A stretch of 63,782 nucleotides of DNA, filler included, from an uncultured Methanosarcinales archaeon (lineage in GTDB: Archaea > Nanobdellota > Nanobdellia > Woesearchaeales > B54-G15), in assembly GCA_964519225.1 (NCBI GenBank). It is 3 parts of 3 records of this genome, joined end to end, with 100 filler letters (N's around TTAATTAATTAA, not from the genome) between each part and the next. Parts side by side here need not be neighbours in the genome. Positions count along the whole stretch, not along the records: positions 28,117 to 55,267 come from CAZFJK010000011.1; 2 more parts are not named here. The stretch is one strand, 5' to 3'. Every line of letters starts with the position of its first letter. Within the stretch, counting starts at the first letter, position 1. Made by a program: the position numbers and the translations under genes. Under the pieces are notes generated by a model, which saw nothing but the letters and a program-made list of their open reading frames with translations, was not told the origin of the DNA and did no database searches. Positions 10,266 through 41,549 of this stretch are shown here, one piece after another.

Positions 10266-10296
10266 TTTAGTGTAATTTATTTTGGGAGTGTGTCAT

Positions 10297-10987: not shown

Positions 10988-11059
10988 TTTACCTCTTCTA
11001 TTGCATCAACAAGCCTTTCAAGGTCAAGCCTGCTTAACCTGCTCCAGTTGAAATCTGTT

Positions 11060-12217: not shown

Positions 12218-12325
12218 TTAGCATTCACCTTTTTTAGTTTTTCTTCTAATTTTGTAATTCTGTCCTCGTGGTCTTCAAGCCATTGCTTTAATTCATCTTG
12301 GCTTATAGGAATATAGTCTTCCACT

Positions 12326-12619: not shown

Positions 12620-12644
12620 GGGGTAGTTATTTTTTGCCCCCTTA

Positions 12645-12890
12645 TTATTTCTTTAGTTTCTTCTCTAAATCGCCGTACTTTGCCTTTATCTGCCTTAGTT
12701 CCTTGTGGTTGGGGTTTCTTATTTTGTTGGAATATCCAAGTATCAAATATCCTTCTTGGATGTCATAATACACTGGTCTATGGTCTATTTTACCTATGTA
12801 CTTTCTTGGCTCATATTTGTGTTTGTACAGGTCATTCATTTTTATGCCTCCATAATCAAAAAAATAAAGGGCAAATTGCCCTTTATTCAA
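12645..12890 (-). CDS. Hypothetical protein (likely start MNDLY)
   Basis: GGAGG RBS upstream of the internal Met. Confidence 0.5.
   Translation of the reverse strand: MNKGQFALYFFDYGGIKMNDLYKHKYEPRKYIGKIDHRPVYYDIQEGYLILGYSNKIRNPNHKELRQIKAKYGDLEKKLKK
12856..12887 (-). terminator. Hairpin with U-tract after the 12883-13239 gene
   Basis: AATAAAGGGCAA-A-TTGCCCTTTATT palindrome followed by a T-run on the minus strand. Confidence 0.65.
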
Positions 12891-13239
12891 TCAGTAATCT
12901 AAAAAATCCCTCTGGTGAAGTAAGACACTTTACTTGATCCCCTACTTCAGGCAGCTTATTGTAATATTTCTTGTACTTGCCTAAGTTGCTGTTAGAACTA
13001 AATACTGTCTTGTCGCCTTCGTTCTTGTAGTTGAACAGCTTTGAAAACTCATACTTCTGCCCCATGTAATTTACTTCTATGTGAACATTGATTGCTGGAC
13101 TGTTCACATCTCCTTTCCAACCGTCCAAATTCTTCACAAAGTCTGAGGTCTTGCCATCATCAATATTCACGATTACGCCTACTGTAGATATACCTGCCCC
13201 TAAACCTTGTTTCTCTTCGCTTTTTTGTGGGTTATACAT
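12883..13239 (-). CDS. Beta-rich protein, possible OB-fold ssDNA-binding protein
   Basis: Beta-strand pattern; strong RBS and own terminator; near the replication module; function inferred. Confidence 0.4.
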   Translation of the reverse strand: MYNPQKSEEKQGLGAGISTVGVIVNIDDGKTSDFVKNLDGWKGDVNSPAINVHIEVNYMGQKYEFSKLFNYKNEGDKTVFSSNSNLGKYKKYYNKLPEVGDQVKCLTSPEGFFRLLIE

Positions 13240-13584
13240 TGTATTTATTCCTCCATATTTTTTTCATCTGTTTGATGAACATTACCTAAATAATGATTGA
13301 TTATTCCTTTTATGGCCATGTTCTTTGAAGAATAATTATGTTTTTTCATATAGGCCTTCAAAAGTTCTTCTTCCTTTTCATCCAAAAATAACAGTACTTG
13401 CATCTTAATTTCCTCCGTTTAATGTGTTATTATTATAATAATCATAATAACTATTTAAATATTTCGCTACTCCAAAACAACCTTTGGAGTATACAAGCAA
13501 AGTCCAAAGCAGGCAGAAAAAGAGGTGAATGGGGGTATTGGTATAGAATACCTCCAGAAAACTGCTTGCTATTTTGGTTTGCTT

Positions 13585-13719
13585 TCATCTGTTGAACCTG
13601 CAATTGACTTTTGGGCAAGTGTAACGGTGCTTTAAGTGCGGGATCAGCTTTCTGCCGCAGATTGGGCATTTGGTTGAGCTACTCAGTTTCCAGATGAAAA
13701 TTTTTAGTGAATCAAGCAT
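13585..13719 (-). CDS. Small Zn-finger protein (44 aa, not in ORF track)
   Basis: MLDSLKIFIWKLSSSTKCPICGRKLIPHLKHRYTCPKVNCRFNR; GGAGGT RBS. Confidence 0.7.
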   Translation of the reverse strand: MLDSLKIFIWKLSSSTKCPICGRKLIPHLKHRYTCPKVNCRFNR

Positions 13720-13756
13720 TTTGTACCTCCAGCCTTGCGATGGCTTTTGCTCAAGG

Positions 13757-13809
13757 GTTAATTACCACAAGATATTGTTAATTACCACAGGGTATTTTTC
13801 ATTACAACT
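13757..13809. repeat. Iteron-like direct repeats with 20-bp period
   Basis: GTTAATTACCACA at 13757 and 13777, plus a degenerate third copy. Confidence 0.8.
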
Positions 13810-13908
13810 TTTTTGCTGATTTTGGTCATTTTTCTGTTTTCAGATTTTTTCTTATTTTCTCAAAATCTTGCTGATTTCTGAAATTCATATATGAATGCGG
13901 TAAAAAAA

Positions 13909-14007
13909 TGTCACACTTGGCACACTTGCCACCCCACTTCAACCCTATAGTAAACATTTTCTTTTATATAAGGGTAAAATGGGGTGGCAAGTGTGGTAAC
14001 CGTGGCA
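13909..14007. other. Long inverted repeat; putative replication origin
   Basis: CACACTTGCCACCCCA (13921-13936) / TGGGGTGGCAAGTGTG (13980-13995) perfect arms around an AT-rich core, abutting the primase-helicase stop codon. Confidence 0.7.
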
Positions 14008-16374: not shown

Positions 16375-17000
16375 ATAGTTTTTCTTTTTCTTATGTTATA
16401 CTCATAAGTTTGATAAAATATTTTTGGCATTGATTTAATACCATCTAAACAAGAAGATAATAAAATTCCTACACCAGGCTCAAATGTTTTGCCTCTGCCA
16501 CTCCTTCTCCATTCATCCCATAATGTTCTTAAGAATTGTTTTGACTTATTATATTCATAAGGCGGTTCATTTTTAGCTTGTTGTAATACTTTATGCCATT
16601 CTTCATCATTAGGGTATGATTTTATTTCTGATTCAAATAAATGACCATTTATAGAATGTTTTGTGGCAATTATAAAAAAATTAATGTCTATTTTTTTTCC
16701 TTCAATATAATATTTTACTTTATTTTCCTTATATTCCTTTAGATATGTTGTAATTATTTTAGCTGCACTATAAATATTTTTATCACATATTGCTGGTTTT
16801 ATTTCAATAGCACCATACTTGTTAAGAATCTGAGAATAGATAATCATGTCCGGCTTTTTTCTTGACTGACCTTGAACTTTGAATATGTTTTGGTTATTAA
16901 GTTCTTTTATTTTTCTGTTATACCATACTTGAACCCCATTTGATTGTAACCAGCTACTTAACATAATTTCTGCTGTTACCTCAGGTTTCACTATTACCAC
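16347..17000 (-). CDS. PD-(D/E)xK nuclease-like protein
   Basis: E...KPDMIIY...AIEIK motif. Confidence 0.65.
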   Translation of the reverse strand: MVIVKPEVTAEIMLSSWLQSNGVQVWYNRKIKELNNQNIFKVQGQSRKKPDMIIYSQILNKYGAIEIKPAICDKNIYSAAKIITTYLKEYKENKVKYYIEGKKIDINFFIIATKHSINGHLFESEIKSYPNDEEWHKVLQQAKNEPPYEYNKSKQFLRTLWDEWRRSGRGKTFEPGVGILLSSCLDGIKSMPKIFYQTYEYNIRKRKTMWNVRWRKI

Positions 17001-17220
17001 CCCTTAACTCAATTCTCCTTACATCAGAGAGCCTTAATGCCTCAGTCTTATCATTTCTTTTAAGAACAAGATGAGTTGGTGTAATATCAATCAAAAATCC
17101 TTCCTTGGACTTAGGGTATGGGCTTGGAGGATCATCAACTATAACATTTATTTTCTTGTGCAGAAACTCTTTCCAGCTTTCCGTTTCTTCCATATTACCA
17201 ACTCTTTTTCCAAAACTCAA
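16981..17220 (-). CDS. Sm/LSm-like fold protein
   Basis: FLHKKINVIVD...EGFLIDITPTHLVL...LRLSDVRRIE resembles the Sm1/Sm2 pattern. Confidence 0.55.
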   Translation of the reverse strand: MSFGKRVGNMEETESWKEFLHKKINVIVDDPPSPYPKSKEGFLIDITPTHLVLKRNDKTEALRLSDVRRIELRGGNSET

Positions 17221-17341
17221 GGAATAACTTGTAAAGCATAACTACTATTTATACTTTTTCTTTTCCTTCTGTTTTGCTTCGTAAGCCCACAGGGTTTTCC
17301 TAATCTCGCTTGGCTTTTCGCTTAGTATTTCGTACCACATC

Positions 17342-18028
17342 TTAGTTTGCGAACTTATTTAATTTATTTTGATTTCCCCATTTCTCTTCAATCTCTTTTA
17401 GTTTAAAATTAGGTCTAAATTCAACAGGGCTATCTTTTTCATATTGTTTCAACTTTTTCCAAAGTTTAGGGTAATCTTGATATAAAACCCTTAAAGAATC
17501 TTTATTTTGTTTAGGGCATAACCAACAACCCAATCTTTTAAATTTTTTATATAAATGGCTTGCTAATCCTTTTTCTTTGAGATAACTTAAACATTTCTTT
17601 TCAGTCCAACCCCAATCAATTAAAGGATACTTTAGATTTTTATTGTTTAGTTGTATTCTATGTTTTTCATCTGATGCAATACCTAAATAAACAATATTCC
17701 CTTTACAAAACTTATTTAATTGCCACATTTTTAAATCCCTATTACACCAATCAACAATATGAACTTTTGGAAATCCCCTCATATTTCCTTTATTATGTCC
17801 TCTAACTCTTTTCCCATAAAACCTTTGATCCCAAGTATATTTAGATTTTAAAATCTTAATCTTTCTTCCAATATAATTTTCAACTTTTTTAATATAATCA
17901 TAAAGTTCTGGAAATTCTAATCCTGTATCAGCAAAAACTATTTCATCAATAGGCATATTCAATTCAATCATCCTGATTAGCATGGCTGTTGAATCTTTAC
18001 CACCACTAAAACTTACAATATGTTTCAT
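17342..18028 (-). CDS. PAPS reductase family (CysH/DndC-like) protein
   Basis: SFSGGKDS PP-loop, DTGLEF, WC...LK, YPL..W, RLGCWLCP. Confidence 0.92.
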   Translation of the reverse strand: MKHIVSFSGGKDSTAMLIRMIELNMPIDEIVFADTGLEFPELYDYIKKVENYIGRKIKILKSKYTWDQRFYGKRVRGHNKGNMRGFPKVHIVDWCNRDLKMWQLNKFCKGNIVYLGIASDEKHRIQLNNKNLKYPLIDWGWTEKKCLSYLKEKGLASHLYKKFKRLGCWLCPKQNKDSLRVLYQDYPKLWKKLKQYEKDSPVEFRPNFKLKEIEEKWGNQNKLNKFAN

Positions 18029-28272: not shown

Positions 28273-31200
28273 TTAGTAATCATTCTTTTTAATTACAACT
28301 ATTTTACTAGTAGAAGGAATGTAAACAACCTTTGTGTTTCCATAGTTACCTTCGATTCTAGTTCTGATTGATCTATCTACAGAATGTGGTGAAACTGGCA
28401 CAAAATGCTCGACATATGACCCATCTTTATCAGGAAACAAACCATGTATCCCATCTGAATCGTTATAAGTTACAACAATTCTTCCATCATGATCTACAGA
28501 GCATTTTACTTTATATGCTGCTACAAGCGAAAGATTGTTTACTTGTTTTTTTATAATTTCTCTACTTTTCCAAGAACCTGATTTTTTTACGAACTCCTCA
28601 ATACTTAGAATGTTTGTTCCTAAATCTCCTTGTCCAAATATTATGTGTGGAATTTCCCACTTAACTTTTACATGAATGCTGCCTGAGAATAAAGACTTGT
28701 CCATGGACCATTCACCTACTTCTTCCATAGACCATTTACCATTATGAGATCTTTTAATATAATAAATCCGCCAAACTCTGTTTGTTGTATCTTCTTCAAA
28801 AACACCGATATGTACATCACCTAACTCACCAACATCCCAGCAATCTTCAAGAAGTGGAACATAGGGAATATTTTTAGGGAGTTTTCCCAAACTTTCTAAT
28901 TTATCGTTATCGAAATCGTACCTTACAAAAAACGTAAACAACGCATCACGAACCTTATCTCTAAATTCCAATAACCCACAGTAACCTAAAGGAGTTTTCT
29001 TGAAAGCTAAAGGTGATACTCCCTCTAATTTATATTCTTCACCATCTAACTTAATCGTATCATATCTTCCTACTATAAACTTTTCTTTTATAATTCTCCC
29101 ATCATTCGGATTTATAAGTTTATATCCAACACCGTCTTCTGAAAGATAAACTATAATTAAATTATTATCTTTGACTAAGATCTGAGGATTTGTTCCCTCT
29201 CCAAGTTCAATCTCCCCAAGCGAATTATTTACTAAAAATAATCTATGCTTCTGAAGAGAATCATCATAGAAAGAATAGCTTAAAAATTTAGTACCATTTA
29301 TTTCAGCAACGTCAAAAAAATCAACTCTGTTGCTTAAATTCCAAGCTACACTTTCTGAAGGAGGATGATTTTCTTCTATAAGCTCGACTGTTTTTTCTAA
29401 GTTTATTGCTGGAGTTGCGTTGATCAATTTCCCACTTAGTTCTCCGCCTAGTATCAAAAATCTTCTCAATTGCCTAGGAGTGAGGTAAGGATATTTCGCC
29501 TTTAATAAAGCGGCTGCTAATGCTCCGAATGTAGCAGCAGGGCATGTTCCTTTCACGCTTCCATAAACTTCAACTTTTTGTTTTTCCTCATCATCGAAAC
29601 CTATACAAGCCCGTGCACTTCCAGGAGCCATAACATCAATACCATTGATAGTAGAATTAGACAAAACAGTATATGTGCTTCCAATCTTTTCATACGCCCC
29701 ACACACCAAAAAAGTAGGCATGGCATTTTTCAGCCAAGTGGGGATCCCCGTACTAAGTTCTGCATCTAAAGCTGCGTTATTTCCCGCCGAAATAACAATC
29801 AGAGTATTCTTTTCAGCAGCCGATCTTGCTATGTTCTCCCAAACCTTAGCATATTGTTCCAAAATTCTTTTCACAACAGGGTCGTTTTTATTAGGAACAC
29901 CCTTCCAAGGAATATTAACCGTACAGAGGATTATTTTCTCACCAGCATTCAACAGATCTTCCATTGTTTTACCTAAATCGTTTGCATCCCCGGCTGTTTC
30001 ATATGCCCTAATCTGAAATTCTCCACCGGCAGTTCCTTTTTCATTATCAATACCACCAAGCATACTCGCAACAGCAAGTCCATGATATTTTTGTACAACA
30101 ATCTCATTTAAGCTATCAACTCTTAACTCTGGTCTAAGAGTTAGTCTGCCTTCATTAAGCATAAGTTCCCTGGCATAAATATCAGGATTTCCGCTACGCT
30201 GATCAGTCCAAACATAAATCGATGTTGAGTTGTCTTTACGCGTACTTCTAATGCTAGTTTGAGTACCTTCTATTGCACTATTTAAGATCAATTCATCTAA
30301 CAACGTTCCATCGAATCTGAAAGCCTTTATTACAGCGTCCTCATCCTTAGCGCCTTTCTTCGTATAAGCGAAGACAAGTGCTCTTTCATTTGGATTAGTA
30401 CTATCTTGAAGAACAGAAACGCTTCCAAGCTCGCCATTATCTATAAGTAGTTCAAGCGTGTTTCCTTGTTCGTCTTCGATGAGAGCCTTTATCTCGCCAT
30501 TACTTTCATAAGCGAGTACCTTTCTCCATTCATCCTGACTCAATTTTTCAAAAACAAATATAGGTCTAAGCTGATCACCAGTGTTTGAAACAACAAGTTC
30601 AGCATCAGCAAGTGCTTTTCCATCCCAATCAAACTTCCTTTTGAAAATATCATATCCATTTTGCGAATTTATGTCGCTTGCGTAATAAACTTCAAAACTT
30701 CCATTTTCAAAAGGGAAAATGAAAGGATTTATCTGATTAGCATCTTGAACATCTTCAACAAGGATCTCATTACTTATAGGATCACCGTTTTCAGAATAAA
30801 TCCTTAATTTTAGCTTTGCTTTTCCACTATTATAGTCGATCCAACTAACAACAAACCTCGTTTCAGTTCCATCTGTAATAGCTTTTATAACAGCTTTGTT
30901 TTGTATACCATCAATTTGCTGATTTATTCGAATCCACCTATTCGGGCTGCTGGATTTTAGTAAAACTGCACCAATATCTTCATCACCATATTCCCATGTT
31001 GTATACACTATCATTGCTGAATTTTTTCCGGAAGCGATTCTTGGATTTCTCTCCCAGTAAAATCCTTGTGCTGTTCCTATTCTACGTTCTAACCCGTCGA
31101 TGTTACCATATATTTTCCAATTACCAGTGGCATTTGATTCATATACAAAGACAGGAATTCCATTAATAAGGGCTACATCTGCGGACTGTGCTGCGACTTC

Positions 31201-31995
31201 ATTCCCAAAAACAGAATTTTTTCTTTTTACTTCAACCAAATTATCAGTTACGTCTGAAAGATTTTCAATCCCACCAAACCACGTATCTACCAAACCCAAG
31301 GATAGATTTCCCCCAAAAGTACTATTCCAAAGATTATTTATTCCACTATCTTCGTAGCCCCAATTATCTGGTGGCCTGTATTCCGGATCGTTTGGTTGAT
31401 ATTCGATAGATTGGACGTTTTGAAGAACGTCTAGACTTGCTCCTCTTATTACGCTATTTGGTTTCTTACTTTCATTTATCAAGTATTCCCAAGCAGAATT
31501 CCACTCTTGATCGCTAGGAAACCAAATAGTTATAGTCCTAAGATCTTTTTTTACACTTACAACTTCGTACGTATAGCCCTTTAACAATTGAAAAAGCCAC
31601 TCATTCATCTCAGAAAGAGATGGTTTTCCTTTAAAAGGAATAATTAATCTGTTTTTTCGAATCTTTACGCCATGATAATTAACCACAGCATTTTTGTCGG
31701 GACTTAAAAATTCTATCGAATATTTTCCTCTACATCCGCCTAAAAGCGAGAGACCAGCAACAGCACTCATAGCTAGGCCAGAAGCAACAATTCCAGAAGC
31801 GAAAATAGCGCATGCAATAAGATTCCTCAACTTCGAACCCATTTCATACAAAGGTCTTAAAAACCGTGCAACCAATCCTTCTTTTGCATCGCGCTCTATC
31901 AACTCTTTATCAGGAATAAGCCTTCTGTCGGGATCCCAAGGAGGCAATTCTGGAACCCCAATAATATCCTCTAAACCACCATTTCCACTGTGCAT
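28273..31995 (-). CDS. Large membrane-anchored subtilase (S8) family protein with inserted beta-propeller-like repeats
   Basis: PNDP, GLVDT (Asp), HGLAVAS (His), ISAGN (oxyanion Asn), DVMAPG, GTCPAA at the Ser position. Confidence 0.8.
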   Translation of the reverse strand: MHSGNGGLEDIIGVPELPPWDPDRRLIPDKELIERDAKEGLVARFLRPLYEMGSKLRNLIACAIFASGIVASGLAMSAVAGLSLLGGCRGKYSIEFLSPDKNAVVNYHGVKIRKNRLIIPFKGKPSLSEMNEWLFQLLKGYTYEVVSVKKDLRTITIWFPSDQEWNSAWEYLINESKKPNSVIRGASLDVLQNVQSIEYQPNDPEYRPPDNWGYEDSGINNLWNSTFGGNLSLGLVDTWFGGIENLSDVTDNLVEVKRKNSVFGNEVAAQSADVALINGIPVFVYESNATGNWKIYGNIDGLERRIGTAQGFYWERNPRIASGKNSAMIVYTTWEYGDEDIGAVLLKSSSPNRWIRINQQIDGIQNKAVIKAITDGTETRFVVSWIDYNSGKAKLKLRIYSENGDPISNEILVEDVQDANQINPFIFPFENGSFEVYYASDINSQNGYDIFKRKFDWDGKALADAELVVSNTGDQLRPIFVFEKLSQDEWRKVLAYESNGEIKALIEDEQGNTLELLIDNGELGSVSVLQDSTNPNERALVFAYTKKGAKDEDAVIKAFRFDGTLLDELILNSAIEGTQTSIRSTRKDNSTSIYVWTDQRSGNPDIYARELMLNEGRLTLRPELRVDSLNEIVVQKYHGLAVASMLGGIDNEKGTAGGEFQIRAYETAGDANDLGKTMEDLLNAGEKIILCTVNIPWKGVPNKNDPVVKRILEQYAKVWENIARSAAEKNTLIVISAGNNAALDAELSTGIPTWLKNAMPTFLVCGAYEKIGSTYTVLSNSTINGIDVMAPGSARACIGFDDEEKQKVEVYGSVKGTCPAATFGALAAALLKAKYPYLTPRQLRRFLILGGELSGKLINATPAINLEKTVELIEENHPPSESVAWNLSNRVDFFDVAEINGTKFLSYSFYDDSLQKHRLFLVNNSLGEIELGEGTNPQILVKDNNLIIVYLSEDGVGYKLINPNDGRIIKEKFIVGRYDTIKLDGEEYKLEGVSPLAFKKTPLGYCGLLEFRDKVRDALFTFFVRYDFDNDKLESLGKLPKNIPYVPLLEDCWDVGELGDVHIGVFEEDTTNRVWRIYYIKRSHNGKWSMEEVGEWSMDKSLFSGSIHVKVKWEIPHIIFGQGDLGTNILSIEEFVKKSGSWKSREIIKKQVNNLSLVAAYKVKCSVDHDGRIVVTYNDSDGIHGLFPDKDGSYVEHFVPVSPHSVDRSIRTRIEGNYGNTKVVYIPSTSKIVVIKKNDY

Positions 31996-32158
31996 TTTTT
32001 AAACTCTAAATTATATGGTCTAGAATATAAATTTTTCTGTAAAACTGTAGCATTCGAGACTTTTAAGTGACTTGGCTAATTAGCTGATTTTTCTAGCTTA
32101 TAAACCCAAAACGTTTTTATAAAGAAAAATTATCTCTCTCAAAAAAAGAGGTGAAAAT

Positions 32159-33427
32159 ATGCCAAGAAAACCTATTGCTTCTATTATTGGCGTTGGCTGT
32201 ACTAAATTCGGAAACATTCTAAAAACGCCAGAGCTGAAAGGAAAAACATTCCACGAACTCTGCGTTGACGCAGCATTCGAAGCAATGAACGATGCAAACA
32301 TAGAACCAAAAGAAATAGACGCTTTCTTCATCGGAAACATGGTCAGTCACATTAGCCACCTATACAGCCACAATACTCAGCTTGCAGACTGGCTTGGTCT
32401 TCAGCTAAAACCGTCAATGCATTTTGCAACAGCGTGCTCAACTACAAACACGGGCGTTGGCCTAGCAGCAATGGGTATAGCATCAGGAAAGTTCGACACT
32501 GTTCTTGTCGTAGCATGCGAAATTCTCAGCTCACAACCAACAGACAATCCAATGAAACGCGTTCCAGTCGATCCCGTTGATTTGTGGTACTGGACAGACT
32601 TCGGCGTTGATCAAATCTATGCCTATCACCATTGCTATGACATCGCAACCGCATATGGTGCAATTCCAACAATGGGTTATGCAAAGAAATACAAACTCGG
32701 TCTTGACAAAATGGACGAAGTCATGTTCCATATTCATAAAGTCGTAAGAAAACATTCATCGTTAAATCCAAAAGCATTCGTCGAACAAGACTTAAAGCAA
32801 TTAGCAAAAAGCAAAGGCTACAAAGATGAATTTGGGTTCTGGCGTTCAAAAAACAATCCATTTTTTGCATATCCAACTCGATTGCTAAGCGCATTAAACA
32901 CAGTCGACGGAGCATCTGCATACATCCTTACAAGACCAGACAGAGCAAAGCGCTATCACAAACAGCCAATTGATGTAATCGGCTTTCACTGGACATCAAG
33001 CAACTATCCTTGGTTTAAAGAAGATCCAACATTCTGGCCGCAAGACGCATTAGCATTCAAAAAAGCATATCAAATGGCAAAAATAAATCCAAAGCAAATA
33101 GATTACCTTTATGTCCACGACTGTATGCAGATCTATCATCTCATCTTAAGCGAAACAGCAGGTTACTTCAAAAAAGGCGAGGCATGGAAAGCAATAATGG
33201 AAGGCAGAACCTATTACAACGGCGATAAACCAATGTGCACCTCTGGCGGAAGGCATGGAAAAGGACATGCATTTGCAGCATCCGCAGGCGCAGAAGTATA
33301 CGAAATAGTAAAACAAATGCGTGGCGAAGCAGGAAAGCGCCAGATAAAAAAACCAGTTAACATAGCAGTACAGCACAACCACGGCTATGGAATGCATTCT
33401 GCTGTCACTGTCTATAAAAAGAGGTGA
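32159..33427 (+). CDS. Thiolase family protein (SCP2/archaeal acetyl-CoA acetyltransferase type)
   Basis: IIGVGCTKFG, TACST (Cys nucleophile), DGASA, VHDC, SGGRHGKGH. Confidence 0.93.
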   Translation: MPRKPIASIIGVGCTKFGNILKTPELKGKTFHELCVDAAFEAMNDANIEPKEIDAFFIGNMVSHISHLYSHNTQLADWLGLQLKPSMHFATACSTTNTGVGLAAMGIASGKFDTVLVVACEILSSQPTDNPMKRVPVDPVDLWYWTDFGVDQIYAYHHCYDIATAYGAIPTMGYAKKYKLGLDKMDEVMFHIHKVVRKHSSLNPKAFVEQDLKQLAKSKGYKDEFGFWRSKNNPFFAYPTRLLSALNTVDGASAYILTRPDRAKRYHKQPIDVIGFHWTSSNYPWFKEDPTFWPQDALAFKKAYQMAKINPKQIDYLYVHDCMQIYHLILSETAGYFKKGEAWKAIMEGRTYYNGDKPMCTSGGRHGKGHAFAASAGAEVYEIVKQMRGEAGKRQIKKPVNIAVQHNHGYGMHSAVTVYKKR

Positions 33428-33858
33428 TCCAAATGCCAAAAAAGATCCAAACCCTTAAGACTCCTGTCGCAAAACAGTTTTACGATGGACTTGCAAAAGG
33501 AAAAATTCTTGGAATAAAATGTAAAGATTGCGGAAAATGGACATTTCCTCCAGTAACTGCGTGCAGAGAATGCAACAGCAGAAACGTTCAACTAAAGCCA
33601 ATCAGCGGTGACGGAAAAGTACTTTTCTACTCTACTTCAATACTTCCACCAAAGAAATTCCAGCCATATTCGCCATACGCCTACGGACTAGTAATGCTTA
33701 AAGAAGGTCCTTCCTTCTTTACAATGATCGAAGGACTCGATGCAAGAACACCAGAAGCAATAAAGAAAGGAAATGAAAAACTACCGCTGCCGGTAAAAGC
33801 AAAAGTATCCAAAAAAGCAGGAATGAACGTTGTCGTATTCAAAGTAGTTAAAAAATGA
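33424..33858 (+). CDS. DUF35 Zn-ribbon/OB-fold thiolase partner
   Basis: CKDCG...FPP...CREC followed by OB-fold; coupled to the thiolase gene. Confidence 0.93.
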   Translation: MIQMPKKIQTLKTPVAKQFYDGLAKGKILGIKCKDCGKWTFPPVTACRECNSRNVQLKPISGDGKVLFYSTSILPPKKFQPYSPYAYGLVMLKEGPSFFTMIEGLDARTPEAIKKGNEKLPLPVKAKVSKKAGMNVVVFKVVKK

Positions 33859-34103
33859 ATCCAAAAGAGATAGAAAAAAAGTTCAAAGAAATCGTTGCAG
33901 ATATTTTTCATGTTCCTGTAAGCAAGATAAAAGGAACAACCCGTTTTGTTGAGGATTTAAATGCAAAATCAATGGATATTGTTGCATTGATAGCAGCAAC
34001 AGAAAACACTTTCGGTATAAAGGTTCCAACGCAAGAAGCAAGAAAAAACAAAACAGTAGCGCAGGCAATAGCTTACATCAGGAAAAAACTCAAAAAACAA
34101 TAG
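33855..34103 (+). CDS. acpP: Acyl carrier protein
   Basis: FVEDLNAKSMDIVALIAATENTFGIKV...TVAQAIAYI matches the ACP pattern; Ser39 attachment site. Confidence 0.88.
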   Translation: MNPKEIEKKFKEIVADIFHVPVSKIKGTTRFVEDLNAKSMDIVALIAATENTFGIKVPTQEARKNKTVAQAIAYIRKKLKKQ

Positions 34104-34413
34104 CTACAGCAACAGCAACATTTTCAGCATAACTAATGCTTACTTCAACCCTTTTCTTTTCTTTTCCAATCAAAGCATAGGGCTTTCCATTCGTTTTATG
34201 AAGAATTTCCACATCTGCAAAATCAATTTTACAATCAAATGCCTTTCTAACAGCTTCTTTCGCAGCAAACAATCCAGCTAAATGTAAAATCGCATCTTTA
34301 TATTTGGCAGCGTATTGCTTTTCTCTATCTGAAAAAACCCTGTTCAAAAACTCACTCTTATTAGCCCGCATTCTGAATTTTCGAACATTAACAGCATCAA
34401 TACCAATCATCAT
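34090..34413 (-). CDS. acpS: Holo-ACP synthase (4'-phosphopantetheinyl transferase)
   Basis: IGID, FAAKEAVRKA, NGKP, VSISY. Confidence 0.93.
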   Translation of the reverse strand: MMIGIDAVNVRKFRMRANKSEFLNRVFSDREKQYAAKYKDAILHLAGLFAAKEAVRKAFDCKIDFADVEILHKTNGKPYALIGKEKKRVEVSISYAENVAVAVAIVF

Positions 34414-34415
34414 TC

Positions 34416-35567
34416 TTATCCCGTCAGCTTTACACCAAAAACCCTGAGCGATTCTATTGCTATCATTTTTTCTTCGTCAGTTGGAATAACAAAAACCTTT
34501 ACTCTGCTGCTATTCTTGCTGATCACCCCTTCTTTGCCAATAACTCGTGCATTTTTCCTATCATCAATAAGAACACCAAACTGAGGAAGATGGCTGCTTC
34601 TCTTTCTTACAAGCGGAACATTCTCGCCAATGCCTGCCGTAAAAACAATAGCGTCTGTTTTTTCGAGAATTCCAAGATATGCACTTATGTATTTTCTAAC
34701 CCTGTAGCAAAACATATCAAACGCAAGTTTGCATCTTTTTTTCTGCTTCATGCACTTCAAAATTAACCTCATGTCTTTTCCTACCCCGCTTATTCCAAGC
34801 AAGCCGCTTTTCTTATTCAGCATTTTATCAAGCGAGTCAGCATCCATTCCCTTTCTGAGCAGATGTATTAATAATCCTGCATCAATATCTCCGCACCTCG
34901 TAGCCATCATCAATCCTTCAAGTGGCGTTAAACCCATGCTCGTATCAATGCTTTTTCCTTTTGCTATTGCAGTAATGCTGCAACCGGCACCAAGATGGCA
35001 TGTTATTGCATTCAATCTCTCAAACTTCTTTCCGAGAAGAAAAGCGCATCTCTCTGCAACGTACTTGTGCGAAGTCCCATGAAAACCATAGCGCCTTATA
35101 CCTTCCTTAACACATTCATAAGGAATAGCATAACAATAAGCGTATTCAGGTAATGTTTGGTGAAAAGCGGTATCAAAAACAGCAACATTAACTGCTTTCG
35201 GAAGGTATTTCATCGCACCCCTAATTCCGGCAAGATTCACAGGATTGTGAAGCGGAGCAAGTTCAACATATTTTTCAATCTGTTTCAGCAATCGCTTATC
35301 TATTTTCTTCGACTCTGCAATTTCACCGCCGTGAACAACCCTATGCCCAACAACAGCGATAGTATCTGTATCCATTCCTTTTTTACTGATTTCCTTCAGC
35401 ATCTCCTTTATGCCTTCTTCATGCGTTCTTACTTTCCCGCCTTTTTCTCCTATTCTTTCAATCAACCCCCTCAGCTCTTCATGCAATGCTTTCCCAGAAA
35501 CCAGATAAACCCTGTATTTTATCGATGTACTGCCGCAATTAATGACCAAAACCCTCAGCTCTGACAT
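34416..35567 (-). CDS. ackA: Acetate kinase
   Basis: INCGSTSIK, GHRVVHGG, APLHN, FDTAFHQT, YGFHGTSH, FTAGIGEN. Confidence 0.97.
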   Translation of the reverse strand: MSELRVLVINCGSTSIKYRVYLVSGKALHEELRGLIERIGEKGGKVRTHEEGIKEMLKEISKKGMDTDTIAVVGHRVVHGGEIAESKKIDKRLLKQIEKYVELAPLHNPVNLAGIRGAMKYLPKAVNVAVFDTAFHQTLPEYAYCYAIPYECVKEGIRRYGFHGTSHKYVAERCAFLLGKKFERLNAITCHLGAGCSITAIAKGKSIDTSMGLTPLEGLMMATRCGDIDAGLLIHLLRKGMDADSLDKMLNKKSGLLGISGVGKDMRLILKCMKQKKRCKLAFDMFCYRVRKYISAYLGILEKTDAIVFTAGIGENVPLVRKRSSHLPQFGVLIDDRKNARVIGKEGVISKNSSRVKVFVIPTDEEKMIAIESLRVFGVKLTG

Positions 35568-35570
35568 CTT

Positions 35571-36524
35571 CTATCTGCTTTTCGCAAGAACAGAAACTAT
35601 AGCTATAATTCCGATTATGTCCTCTACTTTTGCTCCTCTTGAAAGATCGCTCAGCGCTTTGTTAAAACCCTGAAGTATCGGACCGTAAGCAAATGCCTTT
35701 CCAAAATACTGTGTTAGCTTATAAGCAATATTTCCTGCATCAAGATCAGGAAAGATGAGAACATTTGCCCTTCCAGCCACTTTGCCGAGATCACCTTTTA
35801 TCTTGCGCTTAGCAACATCAAGCCTTAAAGCAGCATCAGCTTGTAATTCACCATCTATCGCTAATCCAAACCTCTTTCCTTTTTTCTGTGCAATTTTAGT
35901 CGCCTTAATCACTTTATGCACATCAGGATGCTCAGCGCTTCCTTTAGTCGAAAAGCTGAGCATAGCTATCCTCGGCTTTATACCAAGCAGCTTCTTCACG
36001 TTTATCCCGGTCATCACAGCAATATCAGCAAGCTCTTCTGCTGTTGGGTTCGGATTTACTGAAGCATCTGCATAAACATACTGCCCGAATCCAGGAACAT
36101 CCATGATAAAGAAGCTAGAAGGAATCCTGATTCCTTTTTTCAATCCAATAATCTGTTTGCTAACCGCAATAAAATCACCGCTGGTATAAACACAACCGCC
36201 AACCATTCCATCAACATATCCAAGCTTGAGCAATAAAGCAGCAGAAATCAATTTATCTTTAACTATTGCCTCCGCGGTTCTTGCTTTTACTTTACTTAGT
36301 TTAATGTAAGCTTTTGTAAGCTCTTTTTGTATAGAAGAACAATCGATGTATTTAATTCCGCATTTCTTGCTTAGAGCAACGTCTTCTTCAATCCAGCAAG
36401 GAAAAACAGGAACAGCAAAATCCTTGGCTTTTTTGGCAGCCTTCTGTATGCGTTCATCATAGAATTCCGGCAAAACAATCTTCGCTTTAGTCTTCTTTGC
36501 CTTCTGTATAAAACGCTCGGTCAT
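35571..36524 (-). CDS. pta: Phosphate acetyltransferase
   Basis: AMLSFSTKGS, DGELQADAA, FPDLDAGNIAYK, DLSRG. Confidence 0.97.
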   Translation of the reverse strand: MTERFIQKAKKTKAKIVLPEFYDERIQKAAKKAKDFAVPVFPCWIEEDVALSKKCGIKYIDCSSIQKELTKAYIKLSKVKARTAEAIVKDKLISAALLLKLGYVDGMVGGCVYTSGDFIAVSKQIIGLKKGIRIPSSFFIMDVPGFGQYVYADASVNPNPTAEELADIAVMTGINVKKLLGIKPRIAMLSFSTKGSAEHPDVHKVIKATKIAQKKGKRFGLAIDGELQADAALRLDVAKRKIKGDLGKVAGRANVLIFPDLDAGNIAYKLTQYFGKAFAYGPILQGFNKALSDLSRGAKVEDIIGIIAIVSVLAKSR

Positions 36525-36572
36525 AACGTACGGTAAATAAATTTTTTATATAAGCTTTTTCTTTTTCAAAAC

Positions 36573-39500
36573 ATGTCCAAAAAAAAGAGGATGATTAAAG
36601 TAGTTTTAGCTATCCTAATTATGATTATCCTCTTTCTCTGCATAAAAAAGCCGAACTGGATTGCGGGTTCTATCGTCTACAAAATCGAGCCGAAACAATC
36701 TGATTATGAAACAAAGCAAATCTGTACTTGCTCCTCGTGTCAAGAATGTACAGAAAAACTAAACGATCCTTCTTGTCATATTGTGCAAGTAACTGCTGAT
36801 TTTCCAGCTCCTTCGACCTGTATCGACGATCCAGAGATTAGTGGAAAAATATTCGATTGTCAAGGGCATTCCGTCTATAAAGGACAAGAGTCTTTTATGT
36901 TAATAAAGGATAGTGAGAACTTCACCGTCAAAAATTGTGATTTGGAATATTTCCAGGATGGATTTCGATTTGAGAAATGCTCAAACGCGACTATTGCTAA
37001 TATAACTATAAAGGAATTAGAAAATATTGTTGTCAAGTTAGTAGATTCAGAAAATACAACGATTGACAATATTACATTTACTGCTGGCACGAATCCTAGC
37101 TACGCTATTTACTCGATTAATTCTGCCAACACAACAGTAAAAAATACTGCTTTTACAACATCTAGATTTGACATCTTCATATCGGCCTCTGCAAGAAAAT
37201 ACTGTACAATGAATTTTGAAAATACTTATGGAACACCGACAACCACGAACTCGACGCCGGGAATCAAGATTATCGATTACTCTAATGCCGAGTTAAATAA
37301 CATACTAGATGACCTTACAGAAATAATCATATGTTTTGCGCAAAACGTATCAGTAAAAGACATTGAAATTTCACATTCAACCACAACAAATGGAATACTT
37401 GTCATAAATTCGAGCAATGTAACTTTCACGGATGTAAAACTTAATGTAAATTCCGTTGGAATAGATTTGACCGATTCAAAAAATGTTTTTATAGAAAACT
37501 CAACTATAAGCTCTATTCCGGCTAACGGCGCCGCTATTTCTGCAAATAGGTGTGAGAATGTCTTGGTTAAAAACATATCCACACAAAAAACATATTTCGG
37601 AACAAAAATCGAATATTCCGAGAACGTCACGGTCAACAAAATTAACATAGTGGATTCGAGTTACGGCATAACCTCATATTTTTCGCAGGGAGTAAGAATC
37701 GCAAATGTCTCTTTCTCATCGAGCGAATACTTAGATATCGACGTGAAAGCCGATAATCCAATGCAGTGTCCAGTGGTAGAAAACTGCAACGGTTCAGAAG
37801 GAAAGAAGATCCTCTACTACAAAAACTTGAACTCAGTTTTGCTTTCGAGTATGTCCCCGGACGAACTTATCCTGTGTAACACTTCTAATCTTACCATCAG
37901 AAACGTAACGATAATAAGAACGGTAAAAAAGAACAATGGAATTATCACATCAAATTCGTCTGGAATTAGATTCGAAAACAATCGTATACAGTCAGCCCAT
38001 GTAGCTCTCTTTGGGTATAAACTTCAAAACAGCACCATTCTAAATATGTCCGCAATTGCTCCAATGTATGGAATATACCTGCAGAAAAGCACGTATAATA
38101 CAATAACAAACTCATCCTTTGAATCAGTTGGAACACCGATCTTTTTCGATGAGTCTACAGAAAACACAATAAAAAATTCCTATTTCATCAACACAGGAAA
38201 AGAAATTCACGTGTCTAAGAACAATTTTATCTACAATAACTTCTTTAATCAAACCCCCATCATAATAGAATCTGATATAAACTATTGGAACACAACCAAA
38301 CAGCCAGGAAAGAGGATTTATTCTAAGGGACCTTTAATCGGAGGAAACTACTGGATTCCCTACTCAGAAACATGCGCAGACGCTGATAAAGATGGATTTT
38401 GTGACAATCCGTATAGAATAAGCATGAGTGAAGACTACCTCCCACTCAGCAATAAATATCGGCCTGTGTGCTATTGTATAAACTGTTCGGATTGCTCACA
38501 GAAATTGGCAGACCCTATGTGTGAAGAAGTTGTGCTCAATCGTTCTACAGCATTACATGCAGAAAAACTACCGTGCATCGAAATGATTAACTTAACAAAT
38601 AAAACATTTAGATGTACAGCAAGTATAGTCGGCAACGGCTCTTCCGAAGGCATAACGCTGAAGAACACAACGAACATTAAAGTAAGCCAATGCGTAGTAT
38701 CAAACTTCTCCAGAGCAGTAAGCATCGAAGATTCTTTTTCAGTCACACTCGAAAATATATCTTCTAATCAAACAAATAATTCCATCATAATACTAACTAC
38801 AACGAGTGCTTTGCTCAAAAACAACACATTGGTTTCATCAGAAATAGGAATCTTAGTGAACAATTCAAAAGGTATACGAATAAACAAAACAGACATAGAT
38901 TCTGGTCAGATTGGCATCAACTTCTGTAATGTTAATAATTCTTATGTAATAGGTACATCGATTTCCTCAGAGACGTGCATAAATTTAACAAATGCGCAAG
39001 AGAATAGCTTTTTCAACAACCTAATGAATTGCACAGTCCATGCAATAATAAATCCACTTCTACAAAACAACTGGAACACGTCCAAACAATTCGGAACAAG
39101 GATATATTCTCCTGGATACATGATAGGCGGAAACTACTGGACAAATCCATCGGCTACTGGATTCAGCGATAACTGCACTGACGCAGACCTCGATGGTTTC
39201 TGCGATTCGGCCTACCAACTCGCTCCGAACAATACAGACCATCTACCATATAGTAATGCATTTACGCCAGGCATATGCGAATGTGATTCCTGTTCTTTAT
39301 GCACAAATGCGATGAACGACCCTTCCTGTGCGATCGTAAAGCTCGTATCAGATATCGGTGGTAGCGTTTCAACCTGCATAGACAACCCATTGGGTTTCAG
39401 CAACAAAACGCTTGACTGCGACGGACACATTATCCAAGCCACAAAACACGGAATATGTCTCACAACTAATCTCGAGAATAGCGTTATTAAAAACTGTGTG

Positions 39501-41549
39501 CTGAAGGATATGAAATACGGCATGGAGATAATATCGTTAAACAATTTTACGTTTCAAAACATCACAATTCAATCCTCAGCACTTGATGAGGCGATCTTTG
39601 GAAAAGTAAACAATAACCTCACCTTTTCGAACATAAAAATCATCGGTGCTTCATCCTCTTATGGTTTAGGATTCTTTCAAGCGCGCTCAACCGGACTTAA
39701 ACTAGTTAATTTTACTATAACACGTCTAAAAATAGGTCTACAAATCGAAGATAATTCTGAAAGATTTCTCATAGACAAATTAAACGTTGCTAATTTAACC
39801 TACGGTATTCACATTATCTCATTAGTTAACAGTATAATAAGAAACAGCATATTTCAAAGTTCGGTTCCCTGCGCTATTGCCATGCTTTCTGGAGGAAACA
39901 ACCTCATTTACAACAATCTTTTCAACGGCACATCCATCTCGGTGTCCGTGCCGAACTACTGGAACACGTCCAAACAATTCGGAACAAGGATATATTCTCC
40001 TGGATACATGATAGGCGGAAACTACTGGACAAATCCATCGGCTACTGGATTCAGCGATAACTGCACTGACGCAGACCTCGATGGTTTCTGCGATGGAAAC
40101 TACACCATCAACCGAGGTAATATAGATTTTCTGCCTCTAAGCGATGAATTTCAATCAAACTGCATCGATTTGAATAACGAATCAACATTCAAGGGAAGAG
40201 TTGTAAAATCTGGAAATACCTTGTATGTAAGAACATCCGTTGAAATATGCTCTGGAACTTATCATCTCAACGATTCGCCTGCAACCATAATCAATTCTTC
40301 AAACACTGTCTTCTCTTGCCAACCAGGCACAATCCTCTTGGGCACTGGAACCGAAAACGCCATCTATTCCAATTTTAGTAACGTAACAATCTCAAATTGC
40401 TCTTTTGAAAGTTTCAAGACCGCAATAATTTTAGAAAAAAGTGGAAACATACTTTCAAATTCATTTGTTCAAAATGCCCTCGGGTTAAACCTAACCGATG
40501 CAGGGGTACTGATAGAAGATAACATCTTCGACAGAAATTCTATGCATGTCCTTTCGGTTGCTGGAAACAACTTCACAAAGAATTGTTGGAAAGACGCCCA
40601 AAGTCTCGATATCAAAGACTCTGATTATGACGGCTTTGGCGATTCTGGAAGCGCGTATCCTTACTGCAGCTCAAATGGAGGACTTGTTTCGGATTATGTT
40701 TATGACTACATGCCGCGAATGCTCGGCTGCTATCCTTACTGCGGAGATGGCATATGCCAGTCAAACGAAAACTATCTTACGTGCCCAAATGATTGTCCTC
40801 CTGTAGAAGAGGAGGAAGAAACAACTTTGCGCAGAAGACGGGGAAGCACTTCTCTTCAGAAAGAGAGCGAAGAAAAGAAAGAATGTGTGCCCGTTTGGAA
40901 TTGCACACAATGGAGTGAATGCATCAATGGTACTCAAAGAAGATTTTGCAAAGAAATCCGGTGCGGTCTAGGAAATAAAACAGAGTACAGACCGTGCGTT
41001 TCTGAACAGATAAAACCCAAACAAGAAAAACCTCTCCCACCGCCGTTTACAGAAAGTCTGAAGCGCTTCATCGCAACATACATTACTGGCGCGCTAGCTG
41101 TCTGTATACCTTCTTTTGTCATACTCGGCATAGCCCTCAGTCTAATTGTCCAAAGCTATTTGTTAAAGATTAAACCTGCTAAGAAAAATGCAAATAAGAT
41201 AACGATTCTCTGGTTACTTTCTATCGGAGCGCTTCTCTTCACTTTTATCTCGTGTCCACGGTCAGTTCAGCTTGCTTATTGTTTGATTGTGCTTTCTATT
41301 TTTTCAACAATTCTGATGATAATAAAACACTTAAAAATCCATATAAAAGTGAACCATATAAAAGTAAGAAAAAGAGAGTTTTACGAAGAAACCAAGCAAA
41401 TCATAAAAGAACTCAGGAGAAAGCTCAAAATGAAAGATAAAGAAATCATCAAACTGAAAAGAAAGCTTAATGCGTATCAAACAATGCTAAAAAAGATAGC
41501 AAAAAAAGAAAGAACCATAGAACAATTAATAAATCGCTTTCTAAGATAA
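36573..41549 (+). CDS. Large surface protein with NosD/pectin-lyase beta-helix repeats and C-terminal TM helices
   Basis: Parallel beta-helix repeats; GGNYW...DADxDGFCD modules; TM helices plus coiled-coil tail. Confidence 0.88.
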   Translation: MSKKKRMIKVVLAILIMIILFLCIKKPNWIAGSIVYKIEPKQSDYETKQICTCSSCQECTEKLNDPSCHIVQVTADFPAPSTCIDDPEISGKIFDCQGHSVYKGQESFMLIKDSENFTVKNCDLEYFQDGFRFEKCSNATIANITIKELENIVVKLVDSENTTIDNITFTAGTNPSYAIYSINSANTTVKNTAFTTSRFDIFISASARKYCTMNFENTYGTPTTTNSTPGIKIIDYSNAELNNILDDLTEIIICFAQNVSVKDIEISHSTTTNGILVINSSNVTFTDVKLNVNSVGIDLTDSKNVFIENSTISSIPANGAAISANRCENVLVKNISTQKTYFGTKIEYSENVTVNKINIVDSSYGITSYFSQGVRIANVSFSSSEYLDIDVKADNPMQCPVVENCNGSEGKKILYYKNLNSVLLSSMSPDELILCNTSNLTIRNVTIIRTVKKNNGIITSNSSGIRFENNRIQSAHVALFGYKLQNSTILNMSAIAPMYGIYLQKSTYNTITNSSFESVGTPIFFDESTENTIKNSYFINTGKEIHVSKNNFIYNNFFNQTPIIIESDINYWNTTKQPGKRIYSKGPLIGGNYWIPYSETCADADKDGFCDNPYRISMSEDYLPLSNKYRPVCYCINCSDCSQKLADPMCEEVVLNRSTALHAEKLPCIEMINLTNKTFRCTASIVGNGSSEGITLKNTTNIKVSQCVVSNFSRAVSIEDSFSVTLENISSNQTNNSIIILTTTSALLKNNTLVSSEIGILVNNSKGIRINKTDIDSGQIGINFCNVNNSYVIGTSISSETCINLTNAQENSFFNNLMNCTVHAIINPLLQNNWNTSKQFGTRIYSPGYMIGGNYWTNPSATGFSDNCTDADLDGFCDSAYQLAPNNTDHLPYSNAFTPGICECDSCSLCTNAMNDPSCAIVKLVSDIGGSVSTCIDNPLGFSNKTLDCDGHIIQATKHGICLTTNLENSVIKNCVLKDMKYGMEIISLNNFTFQNITIQSSALDEAIFGKVNNNLTFSNIKIIGASSSYGLGFFQARSTGLKLVNFTITRLKIGLQIEDNSERFLIDKLNVANLTYGIHIISLVNSIIRNSIFQSSVPCAIAMLSGGNNLIYNNLFNGTSISVSVPNYWNTSKQFGTRIYSPGYMIGGNYWTNPSATGFSDNCTDADLDGFCDGNYTINRGNIDFLPLSDEFQSNCIDLNNESTFKGRVVKSGNTLYVRTSVEICSGTYHLNDSPATIINSSNTVFSCQPGTILLGTGTENAIYSNFSNVTISNCSFESFKTAIILEKSGNILSNSFVQNALGLNLTDAGVLIEDNIFDRNSMHVLSVAGNNFTKNCWKDAQSLDIKDSDYDGFGDSGSAYPYCSSNGGLVSDYVYDYMPRMLGCYPYCGDGICQSNENYLTCPNDCPPVEEEEETTLRRRRGSTSLQKESEEKKECVPVWNCTQWSECINGTQRRFCKEIRCGLGNKTEYRPCVSEQIKPKQEKPLPPPFTESLKRFIATYITGALAVCIPSFVILGIALSLIVQSYLLKIKPAKKNANKITILWLLSIGALLFTFISCPRSVQLAYCLIVLSIFSTILMIIKHLKIHIKVNHIKVRKREFYEETKQIIKELRRKLKMKDKEIIKLKRKLNAYQTMLKKIAKKERTIEQLINRFLR
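39070..40094 (+). repeat. 137-bp identical intragenic repeat
   Basis: 39070-39206 is identical to 39958-40094. Confidence 0.95.

Follow-up and report, generated by a model that had tools for sequence, protein, structure and literature searches.

Archaea are the textbook example of life without an acyl carrier protein (ACP), and archaeal systems built on a thiolase and a DUF35 protein have been described as dependent on coenzyme A (CoA). In the archaeal complex of thiolase, 3-hydroxy-3-methylglutaryl-CoA (HMG-CoA) synthase and DUF35, a pantetheine arm is reported to shuttle between the active sites through a fused CoA site (PMC12960953). A ketothiolase/DUF35 pair is likewise found in the fatty-acid synthase complex of Sulfolobus acidocaldarius, where DUF35 is described as the scaffold of its partners (10.1101/2024.07.05.601840), and in the PhlABC and MucABC acylases the HDxF motif is reported as lost and an HMG-CoA-synthase-like third subunit as required (PMC12960953). 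Two sources state that most archaea lack ACP and the enzymes that process it, and that a few species have them through bacterial transfer (PMC3533463; 10.1101/2024.07.05.601840), which agrees with the general absence of ACP and holo-ACP synthase (AcpS) from archaea assumed in an earlier, sequence-only reading of the DNA treated here. This DNA, hereafter the window, is a stretch of 63,782 nucleotides from an uncultured woesearchaeal archaeon (GCA_964519225.1), composed of three parts joined with filler. At positions 32159-36524 it carries six contiguous genes for a thiolase, a DUF35 protein, an ACP, an AcpS, an acetate kinase (AckA) and a phosphotransacetylase (Pta). Our analysis suggests that this six-gene set is an undescribed carrier-protein route for acetyl units.

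The six open reading frames (ORFs) were confirmed, each with the expected family in Pfam and NCBIfam, and so was the convergent arrangement proposed in the sequence-only reading. On the plus strand lie the gene of a 422-aa thiolase of the DUF35-partnered archaeal/SCP2 type (thl, 32159..33427; Thiolase_C_1 2e-31, Thiolase_N 6e-12), that of a 144-aa DUF35 protein with zinc ribbon and OB fold (33424..33858; zf-ChsH2 1e-11, OB_ChsH2_C 2e-8) and that of the 82-aa ACP (33855..34103; PP-binding 1e-7, NF002150 68.3 bits against a cut-off of 66). The minus-strand operon, equally tightly packed, begins with a 317-aa Pta of a divergent subfamily (35571..36524; Pfam 2e-88), followed by the 383-aa AckA (34416..35567; Pfam 9e-130) and the 107-aa AcpS, a group I phosphopantetheinyl transferase (34090..34413; Pfam ACPS 2e-16). 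The acpS gene is thus placed within the pta-ackA operon, away from the gene of its ACP.

The conservation of this gene set across related loci carries our main finding. The window thiolase matched more than 120 cluster representatives at 47-76% identity. When a thiolase alignment of 20 sequences was run against GTDB, with each species represented by one genome, 79 loci were returned: 41 close (43-77% identity) and 38 distant (22-31%). The distant set includes L060, which lies outside that identity range and is a short piece of a close locus from Micrarchaeota. The ORFs of every locus were searched with the six window proteins. Loci extending at least 3.5 kb past thl were considered eligible, which left 30 of the 41 close loci and, as controls with ordinary thiolase/DUF35 pairs, 34 of the 38 distant ones. 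DUF35 was found in all 30 eligible close loci, Pta in 29, ACP and AcpS in 28 each and AckA in 24. A four-gene core of DUF35, ACP, AcpS and Pta was present in 27/30 of these loci against 0/34 controls; ACP, AcpS and Pta were each found in none of the 34 control loci, and AckA in one (L060). It should be noted that the AcpS of L018 was missed by phmmer, spotted by eye, confirmed with Pfam and added to the counts by hand. The six-gene grouping is far beyond chance, and the proposal of the earlier reading that carrier protein, synthase, thiolase/DUF35 and Pta/AckA belong together is borne out by this GTDB-wide synteny.

Three eligible close loci depart from the core: L038 has only DUF35, L040 has no detectable ACP and presents split thl and ackA ORFs, and in L033, from Clostridia, AckA is absent and AcpS went undetected. 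Four other Clostridia loci (L026, L027, L028 and L031) keep Pta and AcpS in the module with no adjacent AckA. Of six weak-scoring Clostridial ACPs that were tested, five reach the PP-binding cut-off of 20.8 and the other falls just short at 20.7. The arrangement of the genes and their strands vary from lineage to lineage (L014, L015, L017, L024), and the genes nevertheless remain together. Two loci show interruptions of the gene order, which are incidental: in L003 (2378-4454), acp and acpS are separated by a C5 DNA methylase and by an ORF whose domain is of the NgoFVII restriction-enzyme type, and a GNAT acetyltransferase gene stands between ackA and pta in L041 (2613-3173). A plasmid search gave two records, one of them L080 (CP038202.1, Paracoccus ferrooxidans pFER4), which at 8986-11780 carries a thiolase-DUF35 pair of this clade (45.5% identity) followed directly by an IS5 transposase. 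As it lacks ACP, AcpS and Pta, this locus looks like a truncated remnant.

The linkage spans two domains and at least seven phylum-level groups. Judging by the record titles, the archaeal hosts comprise the DPANN groups Micrarchaeota, Woesearchaeota and Pacearchaeota, two Asgard lineages (Borrarchaeum and Promethearchaeota) and a Bathyarchaeota relative (Hecatella); the bacterial ones are Patescibacteria (Saccharibacteria, Minisyncoccia, UBA6257), Clostridia, Chloroflexota and an actinobacterial metagenome-assembled genome (MAG). Two of the Clostridia are in culture: Geosporobacter ferrireducens IRF9 has thl, DUF35, ACP, Pta and AcpS, and Sinanaerobacter chloroacetimidivorans BAD-6 has the same set with AcpS undetected. 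In archaea the loci are flanked by archaeal housekeeping genes (TFIIB, RadA, a ribosomal-protein operon, Nre, archease, S8e), and L014 sits in a record whose title gives a 1.2-Mb Micrarchaeota chromosome.

A quick maximum-likelihood tree unites the cluster thiolases in one clade, separated from the outgroups by a long, fully supported branch. Inside it, a group of Clostridia, Chloroflexota and Salipiger stands apart from an archaea-dominated group that contains sequences of the candidate phyla radiation (CPR), and the Pta tree yields the same four groups as the thiolase tree. Both trees are quick ones, with support from the Shimodaira-Hasegawa-like approximate likelihood ratio test only and with an uncertain root. 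Given the cross-domain occurrence, the reshuffled gene order and the congruent thiolase and Pta trees, the module is a horizontally mobile cross-domain unit and no archaeal speciality. The earlier description of it as an archaeal pathway needs correction, as Patescibacteria, Clostridia, Chloroflexota and the actinobacterial MAG carry it too.

The window thiolase presents Cys93, the motif His320-Asp321-Cys322 (HDC, followed by M323) and His370. Cys93 aligns to the catalytic cysteine of 6esq and 7yvy, and the alignments were also made against 4yzo. In an alignment of 20 cluster thiolases (A1), Cys93 and Cys322 are present in 20/20, and His320, Asp321 and His370 in 18/20 each. The AlphaFold2 model has a confidence (pLDDT) of 90.1, and its best Foldseek matches are archaeal and SCP2-type thiolases at TM scores of 0.8-0.9. 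The HDxF motif is described as the hallmark of Claisen thiolases and as lost in the Friedel-Crafts acylases PhlC and MucB (PMC12960953). Since the module thiolase keeps the HDC motif, its residues predict that it should carry out genuine thioester Claisen or thiolysis chemistry. In the partner protein, the CxxC...CxxC pattern of DUF35 runs through the whole cluster alignment, except for one locally misaligned row (L027).

Some thiolases of the cluster differ at these positions. In two of the 20 A1 rows (P0103 and one more) Gly, Leu and Asn replace His320, His366 and His370, and these two proteins may have an altered chemistry, judging by the substitutions. There is also a second thiolase family, about 52% identical, which has H-S-C-S in place of H-D-C-M, retains the Cys and His residues and comes with its own DUF35. 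In L023 (5970-7919) this second pair stands in tandem with the main pair and adjoins the ACP, and in L037 (7908-9293) the H-S-C-S family provides the only thiolase of the module.

The window ACP reaches 32.6 bits with PF00550 (cut-off 20.8). Its predicted phosphopantetheine site is Ser39, in a D-L-x-A-K-S context, as the sequence-only reading had it; this serine is invariant in 36/36 cluster ACPs in a script alignment and throughout the 34-row alignment A3. The model is a four-helix bundle (pLDDT 92.8) in which helix II (39-53) starts at Ser39, and the nearest solved structures are bacterial AcpP. The AcpP-type D-S-L signature is not present, Lys preceding Ser39 in at least 90% of A3. Neither is the ACP strongly acidic: net charges lie between -6 and +11, and the median pI is 8.4. 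We considered a basic ACP as the mark of an orthogonal carrier and dropped the idea, as all six window proteins are basic and the ACPs of other lineages are mildly acidic; the basicity is partly a proteome bias. The AcpS scores 60.6 bits with PF01648 (cut-off 25) and 58.9 with TIGR00556 (45.35), and 47.8 with the acpS equivalog model, under its cut-off of 59.8. It has a single ACPS domain, aligns to the AcpS chains 3hyk and 1f7l, and conserves the GxD and AAKEA motifs.

As regards the two enzymes of acetate metabolism, AckA reaches 421 bits with TIGR00016 (cut-off 293), and its alignment to 1g99 shows Arg91, Val93, Leu122, Phe179, Pro232 and Arg241 conserved. Arg91 and Arg241 are the catalytic arginines, and the other four are pocket residues that presumably form the acetate site, so that the pocket is predicted to be of the acetate type. 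Pta matches PF01515 with 297 bits and remains under the equivalog cut-offs (TIGR00651 263.8 against 311.2; NF007233 285.7 against 310). With the Pfam model of the PlsX family, too, the window Pta has a weak match (FA_synthesis, PF02504; 16.9 bits against a cut-off of 29.1), and TIGR00182 gives 23 bits against 243.

In the Pta of Porphyromonas gingivalis, Arg89 and Lys92 are reported to bind the 3'-phosphate of CoA and Arg135 the beta-phosphate, Arg89 and Arg135 being the equivalents of Arg87 and Arg133 in the Methanosarcina thermophila enzyme, and activity is reported to need Asp309, Ser311, Arg312 and Asp318 (PMC6461089). The window Pta keeps the catalytic residues as Asp293, Ser295, Arg296 and Asp302, and among the 31 cluster Ptas aligned (A2) these columns are D in 30/31, S in 31/31, R in 31/31 and, for the last, D in 27 and E in 4. 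The CoA-binding positions present a different picture. The window protein has Ser77 at the Arg87 column and Ala120 at the Arg133 column, and the latter is basic in 0/31 cluster Ptas (A 8, T 11, S 6, V 1, M 5). Arg occupies both columns in 5/5 solved Ptas, whose matches to the cluster Pta profile have E-values from 3e-103 to 7e-94.

To place this feature in the wider family, we surveyed the best 150 hits in a representative library of 1.84 billion proteins; 123 of them cover both columns and 27 were dropped. At the Arg133 column these 123 representatives have Arg in 67 cases, Lys in 17 and a non-basic residue in 39. A tree of the cluster Ptas and these representatives splits, at a branch support of 96, into a canonical side of 79 rows, 74 of them basic, and a side of 75 rows. 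Within the latter, a group of 65 rows comprises the 31 cluster Ptas together with 31 non-basic and three basic representatives. Ten Ptas without Arg133 were looked up; all come from uncultured sources and none has been characterised. The loss of Arg133 is suggestive of an altered recognition of the nucleotide end of CoA, as far as residues can indicate it, and falls short of proof of ACP use. Taking the Arg87/Arg133 loss as such proof was in fact an idea that we downgraded, with Arg87 still present in part of the cluster and the Arg133 loss mapping to one broad clade.

P0145, which belongs to the same Pta clade, joins an AcpS domain (35-122) and a Pta domain (166-483) in a natural fusion, and its AcpS half is up to 35% identical to cluster AcpS proteins (E 2e-15). 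This protein of 492 aa is encoded on a 19-kb contig and stands alone in its sequence cluster; its residue composition points to a high-GC organism. A search for DUF35 fusions gave 76 hits, all of them stand-alone.

The genes around the module add little to the six. Clustering of 594 ORFs from the close loci gave no further family common to the lineages. The sole lineage-specific addition is a divergent AraC-type regulator that precedes the module in six Clostridia/Chloroflexia loci and fits an inducible pathway. We scanned 150 of the 345 remaining ORFs of at least 120 aa in the flanks, mainly of archaeal and CPR loci. Ketosynthase (KS), ketoreductase (KR), dehydratase (DH), enoyl reductase (ER), malonyl transferase (MCAT), acyl ligase and HMG-CoA synthase were found in 0/150 of these ORFs, and none of the KS, KR, DH, ER, MCAT and HMG-CoA synthase families occurs among the 42 window ORFs scanned, which confirms that no KS, KR, DH or ER gene is adjacent. 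In the close-locus clustering and the flanking-ORF scan, no gene for a third thiolase-fold subunit was found nearby. In three Micrarchaeia loci (L010, at 12501-14063, and the homologous genes of L012 and L013), pta directly adjoins a gene that resembles an AMP or pyrimidine-nucleoside phosphorylase, which hints at a link to nucleoside fermentation.

The reading that we prefer, tentatively and with a confidence somewhat short of even, is that of one self-contained mobile module, in which the ACP links thiolase/DUF35 to a specialised Pta and to AckA for the formation of ATP. The module AcpS would prime the dedicated ACP on Ser39 and convert it to a thiol carrier. The thiolase/DUF35 pair would then cleave a 3-ketoacyl thioester, most simply an acetoacetyl one, and pass the C2 unit to holo-ACP to give acetyl-S-ACP. 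This would be phosphorolysed by the Pta variant to acetyl phosphate, in a PlsX-like manner, and AckA would transfer the phosphate to ADP, with acetate and ATP as products. All steps would be reversible, so that the same set could also load acetate on the ACP and condense it. The observed basis of the scheme is the linkage of the six genes, catalytic residues that are intact in all six proteins, the acetate-type kinase pocket and the distinct Pta subfamily; the use of acetyl-ACP by Pta, a scaffold role of DUF35, the entry substrate, the net direction and a physical complex of the module proteins are to be taken as proposals. We infer that Pta works with the carrier system because the linkage survives rearrangement, AcpS lies in the pta-ackA operon, Pta and AcpS are kept without AckA, an AcpS-Pta fusion exists and the Pta forms a distinct subfamily. 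The catabolic direction is favoured because the chain runs downhill that way, the hosts are fermenters and an AraC-type regulator accompanies the module in Clostridia.

Ultra-small symbionts of the DPANN and CPR groups are thought to be incapable of making their own cofactors. A bolder version of the scheme, possible and yet rather doubtful, is a CoA-sparing energy pathway, in which protein-tethered phosphopantetheine would replace free CoA in substrate-level phosphorylation and the Pta subfamily would be an acetyl-ACP:phosphate acetyltransferase that had so far escaped recognition. It would represent the first catabolic, ATP-yielding use of ACP in Archaea, spread by inter-domain transfer among ultra-small DPANN/CPR symbionts.

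Several observations weigh against the proposed scheme. Both L038 (Syntrophomonas) and the Paracoccus chromid (L080) have thl-DUF35 without the other module genes. The residue at the Arg87 column is still Arg in 17/31 cluster Ptas, the loss of Arg133 is roughly one event in a wider Pta subfamily that may be unrelated to ACP, and holo-ACP retains the phosphate that Arg133 would contact, so that the loss of this residue is no clean prediction. The AcpS-Pta fusion is a single case; a search for longer AcpS proteins, of low sensitivity, gave three hits, none fused to Pta. For the Clostridia, where CoA is presumably present, the use of an ACP lacks an explanation. Finally, published reconstructions of Woesearchaeota take pta-ackA as the ordinary acetyl-CoA route (PMC8421398).

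The last of these points, together with the 17/31 Ptas that keep the Arg87 equivalent, speaks for two independent units that merely travel together, namely an ordinary Pta-AckA pair converting acetyl-CoA to acetate and an unrelated thiolase/DUF35/ACP/AcpS set. Pta and AckA are indeed complete, with intact catalytic residues, and are the enzymes of the standard pathway. Nevertheless, two such units would hardly be expected to stay linked through rearrangement over two domains and at least seven phylum-level groups, to carry AcpS within the pta-ackA operon or to keep Pta and AcpS without AckA, as in the four Clostridia loci; the fusion P0145 and the congruent thiolase and Pta trees also count against this explanation, which we regard as improbable. 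An anabolic use of the module, which comes close to the interpretation in the sequence-only reading, seems to us unlikely, if less so. Here AckA and Pta would load scavenged acetate as acetyl-ACP, and thiolase/DUF35 would condense it non-decarboxylatively to acetoacetyl-ACP, priming lipid synthesis, which would follow a mevalonate-type route or use FabG/FabZ/FabI-type enzymes encoded at other loci. Within the module, only AckA plus Pta could lead from a free acid to acyl-ACP, and other chain lengths could be the task of the second thiolase-DUF35 pair that some genomes have next to the ACP. Against this direction, condensation by a thiolase is an uphill reaction thermodynamically, and no pulling enzyme is linked to the module in the flanking and window ORFs scanned. 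AraC-type regulators, too, are more typical of inducible catabolism. Ketothiolase/DUF35 pairs are reported as the condensing part of the archaeal fatty-acid synthase complex (10.1101/2024.07.05.601840) and FabG/FabI/FabZ genes have been described in some DPANN MAGs (PMC10936187), and a co-occurrence of FabG/FabZ/FabI with the module would give the anabolic direction more weight; most hosts, on the other hand, are tiny fermenters generally held to lack lipid synthesis (PMC7242380, for CPR).

Two further explanations are of much lower probability. One is a PhlABC/MucABC-like Friedel-Crafts acyltransferase, which would acetylate or deacetylate a small molecule; a relation to PhlC/PhlB was also drawn in the sequence-only reading. 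PhlC and MucB do appear among the structural matches, at ranks 16-31 with a TM score of about 0.77, and these systems are reported to use a DUF35 subunit and an acetylated cysteine as well (PMC12960953). The relation fails at the HDxF motif: the window thiolase keeps H-D-C, as do 18/20 proteins of A1, and no third thiolase-fold gene lies nearby, so that the idea is largely refuted and very improbable. An artefact of assembly or binning, with a bacterial fragment on an archaeal contig, would account for the bacterial type of ACP, AcpS, Pta and AckA, and a chimeric contig had been named from the start as something that would undo the interpretation. The GC content is even along the six-gene locus. 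Archaeal markers do stand on the same contig, as was noticed before, with IF-5A (159.8 bits, cut-off 138) and TYW1 (396 bits, cut-off 318) above the curated cut-offs. Many archaeal MAGs, assembled independently of one another, and the L014 record likewise have the module amid archaeal housekeeping genes. For practical purposes, this explanation is refuted.

Among the points that go beyond the earlier reading, the most informative are the unusual Pta and its retention in Clostridia without an adjacent AckA. We found no description of this gene arrangement in the full-text literature, a search that excluded subscription journals and supplements, and the text of a comparative study of Woesearchaeota (PMC8421398) contains neither 'acyl carrier' nor 'thiolase'. 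If Pta acts on acetyl-ACP, this would be a new enzyme activity in a very well-studied family. In the same case the reconstructions of acetate fermentation in DPANN and CPR, where pta-ackA is now read as the standard acetyl-CoA route, would change, and the six genes would be a concrete example of how an entire metabolic module can pass between domains from one episymbiont lineage to another. The cultured G. ferrireducens IRF9 and S. chloroacetimidivorans BAD-6 carry module genes and so make the question accessible to experiment.

Regarding the fine structure of the locus, the DUF35 and ACP genes overlap by ATGA at 33855-33858, and the convergent 3' ends of acp and acpS overlap by 14 bp (34090-34103), both as described from the sequence. 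The 4-bp overlap claimed for thl and DUF35 did not hold equally well: it would need a GTG start at 33424, and a GAGGTGA Shine-Dalgarno motif (33421-33427), identical to the copy before thl, lies upstream of an ATG at 33433. A 5-nt spacer is therefore more probable than an overlap, and by this motif the true start of DUF35 is likely the ATG at 33433. On inspection of the sequence, the region 32116..32158 (plus strand) is a putative promoter and ribosome-binding region of thl-DUF35-acp, with a TTTATAAA box at 32116-32123 and GAGGTGA at 32148-32154. The 48-bp divergent intergenic region 5' of pta (36525..36572), with an A/T-rich TTTTATATAA stretch, could similarly have a promoter role.

The remainder of the window offers some observations of its own. 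Two predicted surface proteins directly flank the module, one S8 subtilase-like (28273-31995, 1240 aa) and one with NosD/beta-helix repeats (36573-41549, 1658 aa), and a third very large one, with Laminin_G_3 (1379 aa), is encoded at 648-4787. Besides IF-5A and TYW1, the archaeal character of the window shows in three proteins that score below their cut-offs, namely a TrmY-like methyltransferase, a presenilin-type protease and a FlaI-type ATPase with an intein; the gene of this ATPase, of the FlaI/type-IV-secretion family (55399-59178), is split by an intein with a LAGLIDADG homing endonuclease. The stretch 8183-18028, with two tyrosine integrases, a P4-type primase/D5 helicase, a PAPS-reductase-like gene and a GC content of 0.29-0.35 against about 0.38, is probably an integrated mobile element or provirus.

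How the module compares with the known systems can now be stated. The bacterial type II fatty-acid synthase uses an ACP as well, with KS, KR, DH, ER and malonyl transferase, which are not linked to the module ACP in the window and flanking ORFs scanned. The pathway of S. acidocaldarius shares the ketothiolase/DUF35 pair; it is explicitly described as independent of ACP and has, besides, a reductase, a dehydratase and an enoyl reductase (10.1101/2024.07.05.601840), whereas the module has an ACP and none of these enzymes nearby. PhlABC and MucABC have in common with it a thiolase-fold subunit and DUF35, and only the module has ACP, Pta and AckA and keeps HDC. From the Pta-AckA pathway the module has both enzymes with their catalytic residues intact, and it differs from the standard version in a Pta subfamily that lacks the Arg133 equivalent and is genetically tied to ACP and AcpS.

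PlsX is the known precedent for the phosphorolysis of an acyl-ACP to an acyl phosphate, and the likeness is limited to the proposed chemistry, the window protein being a Pta and not a member of the PlsX family. Citrate lyase and malonate decarboxylase, two catabolic systems, also work with an acetyl-S-ACP thioester, and their carrier is re-acetylated by a separate enzyme; their carriers bear a different prosthetic group, their enzymes belong to unrelated families, and no homology to the module was seen, nor was any looked for. The archaeal complex of thiolase, HMG-CoA synthase and DUF35 has a thiolase of the same structural type (TM 0.81-0.88, 26% identity), with an adjacent DUF35, the nucleophilic Cys and HDC. 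The module thiolase has about 30 additional residues in the middle of the protein, and ACP, AcpS, Pta and AckA are found instead of HMG-CoA synthase. That the ACP stands where this synthase usually does, as proposed in the sequence-only reading, may be taken as a positional analogy. In the module the carrier would be a covalently tethered arm, compared with the free CoA of the archaeal complex.

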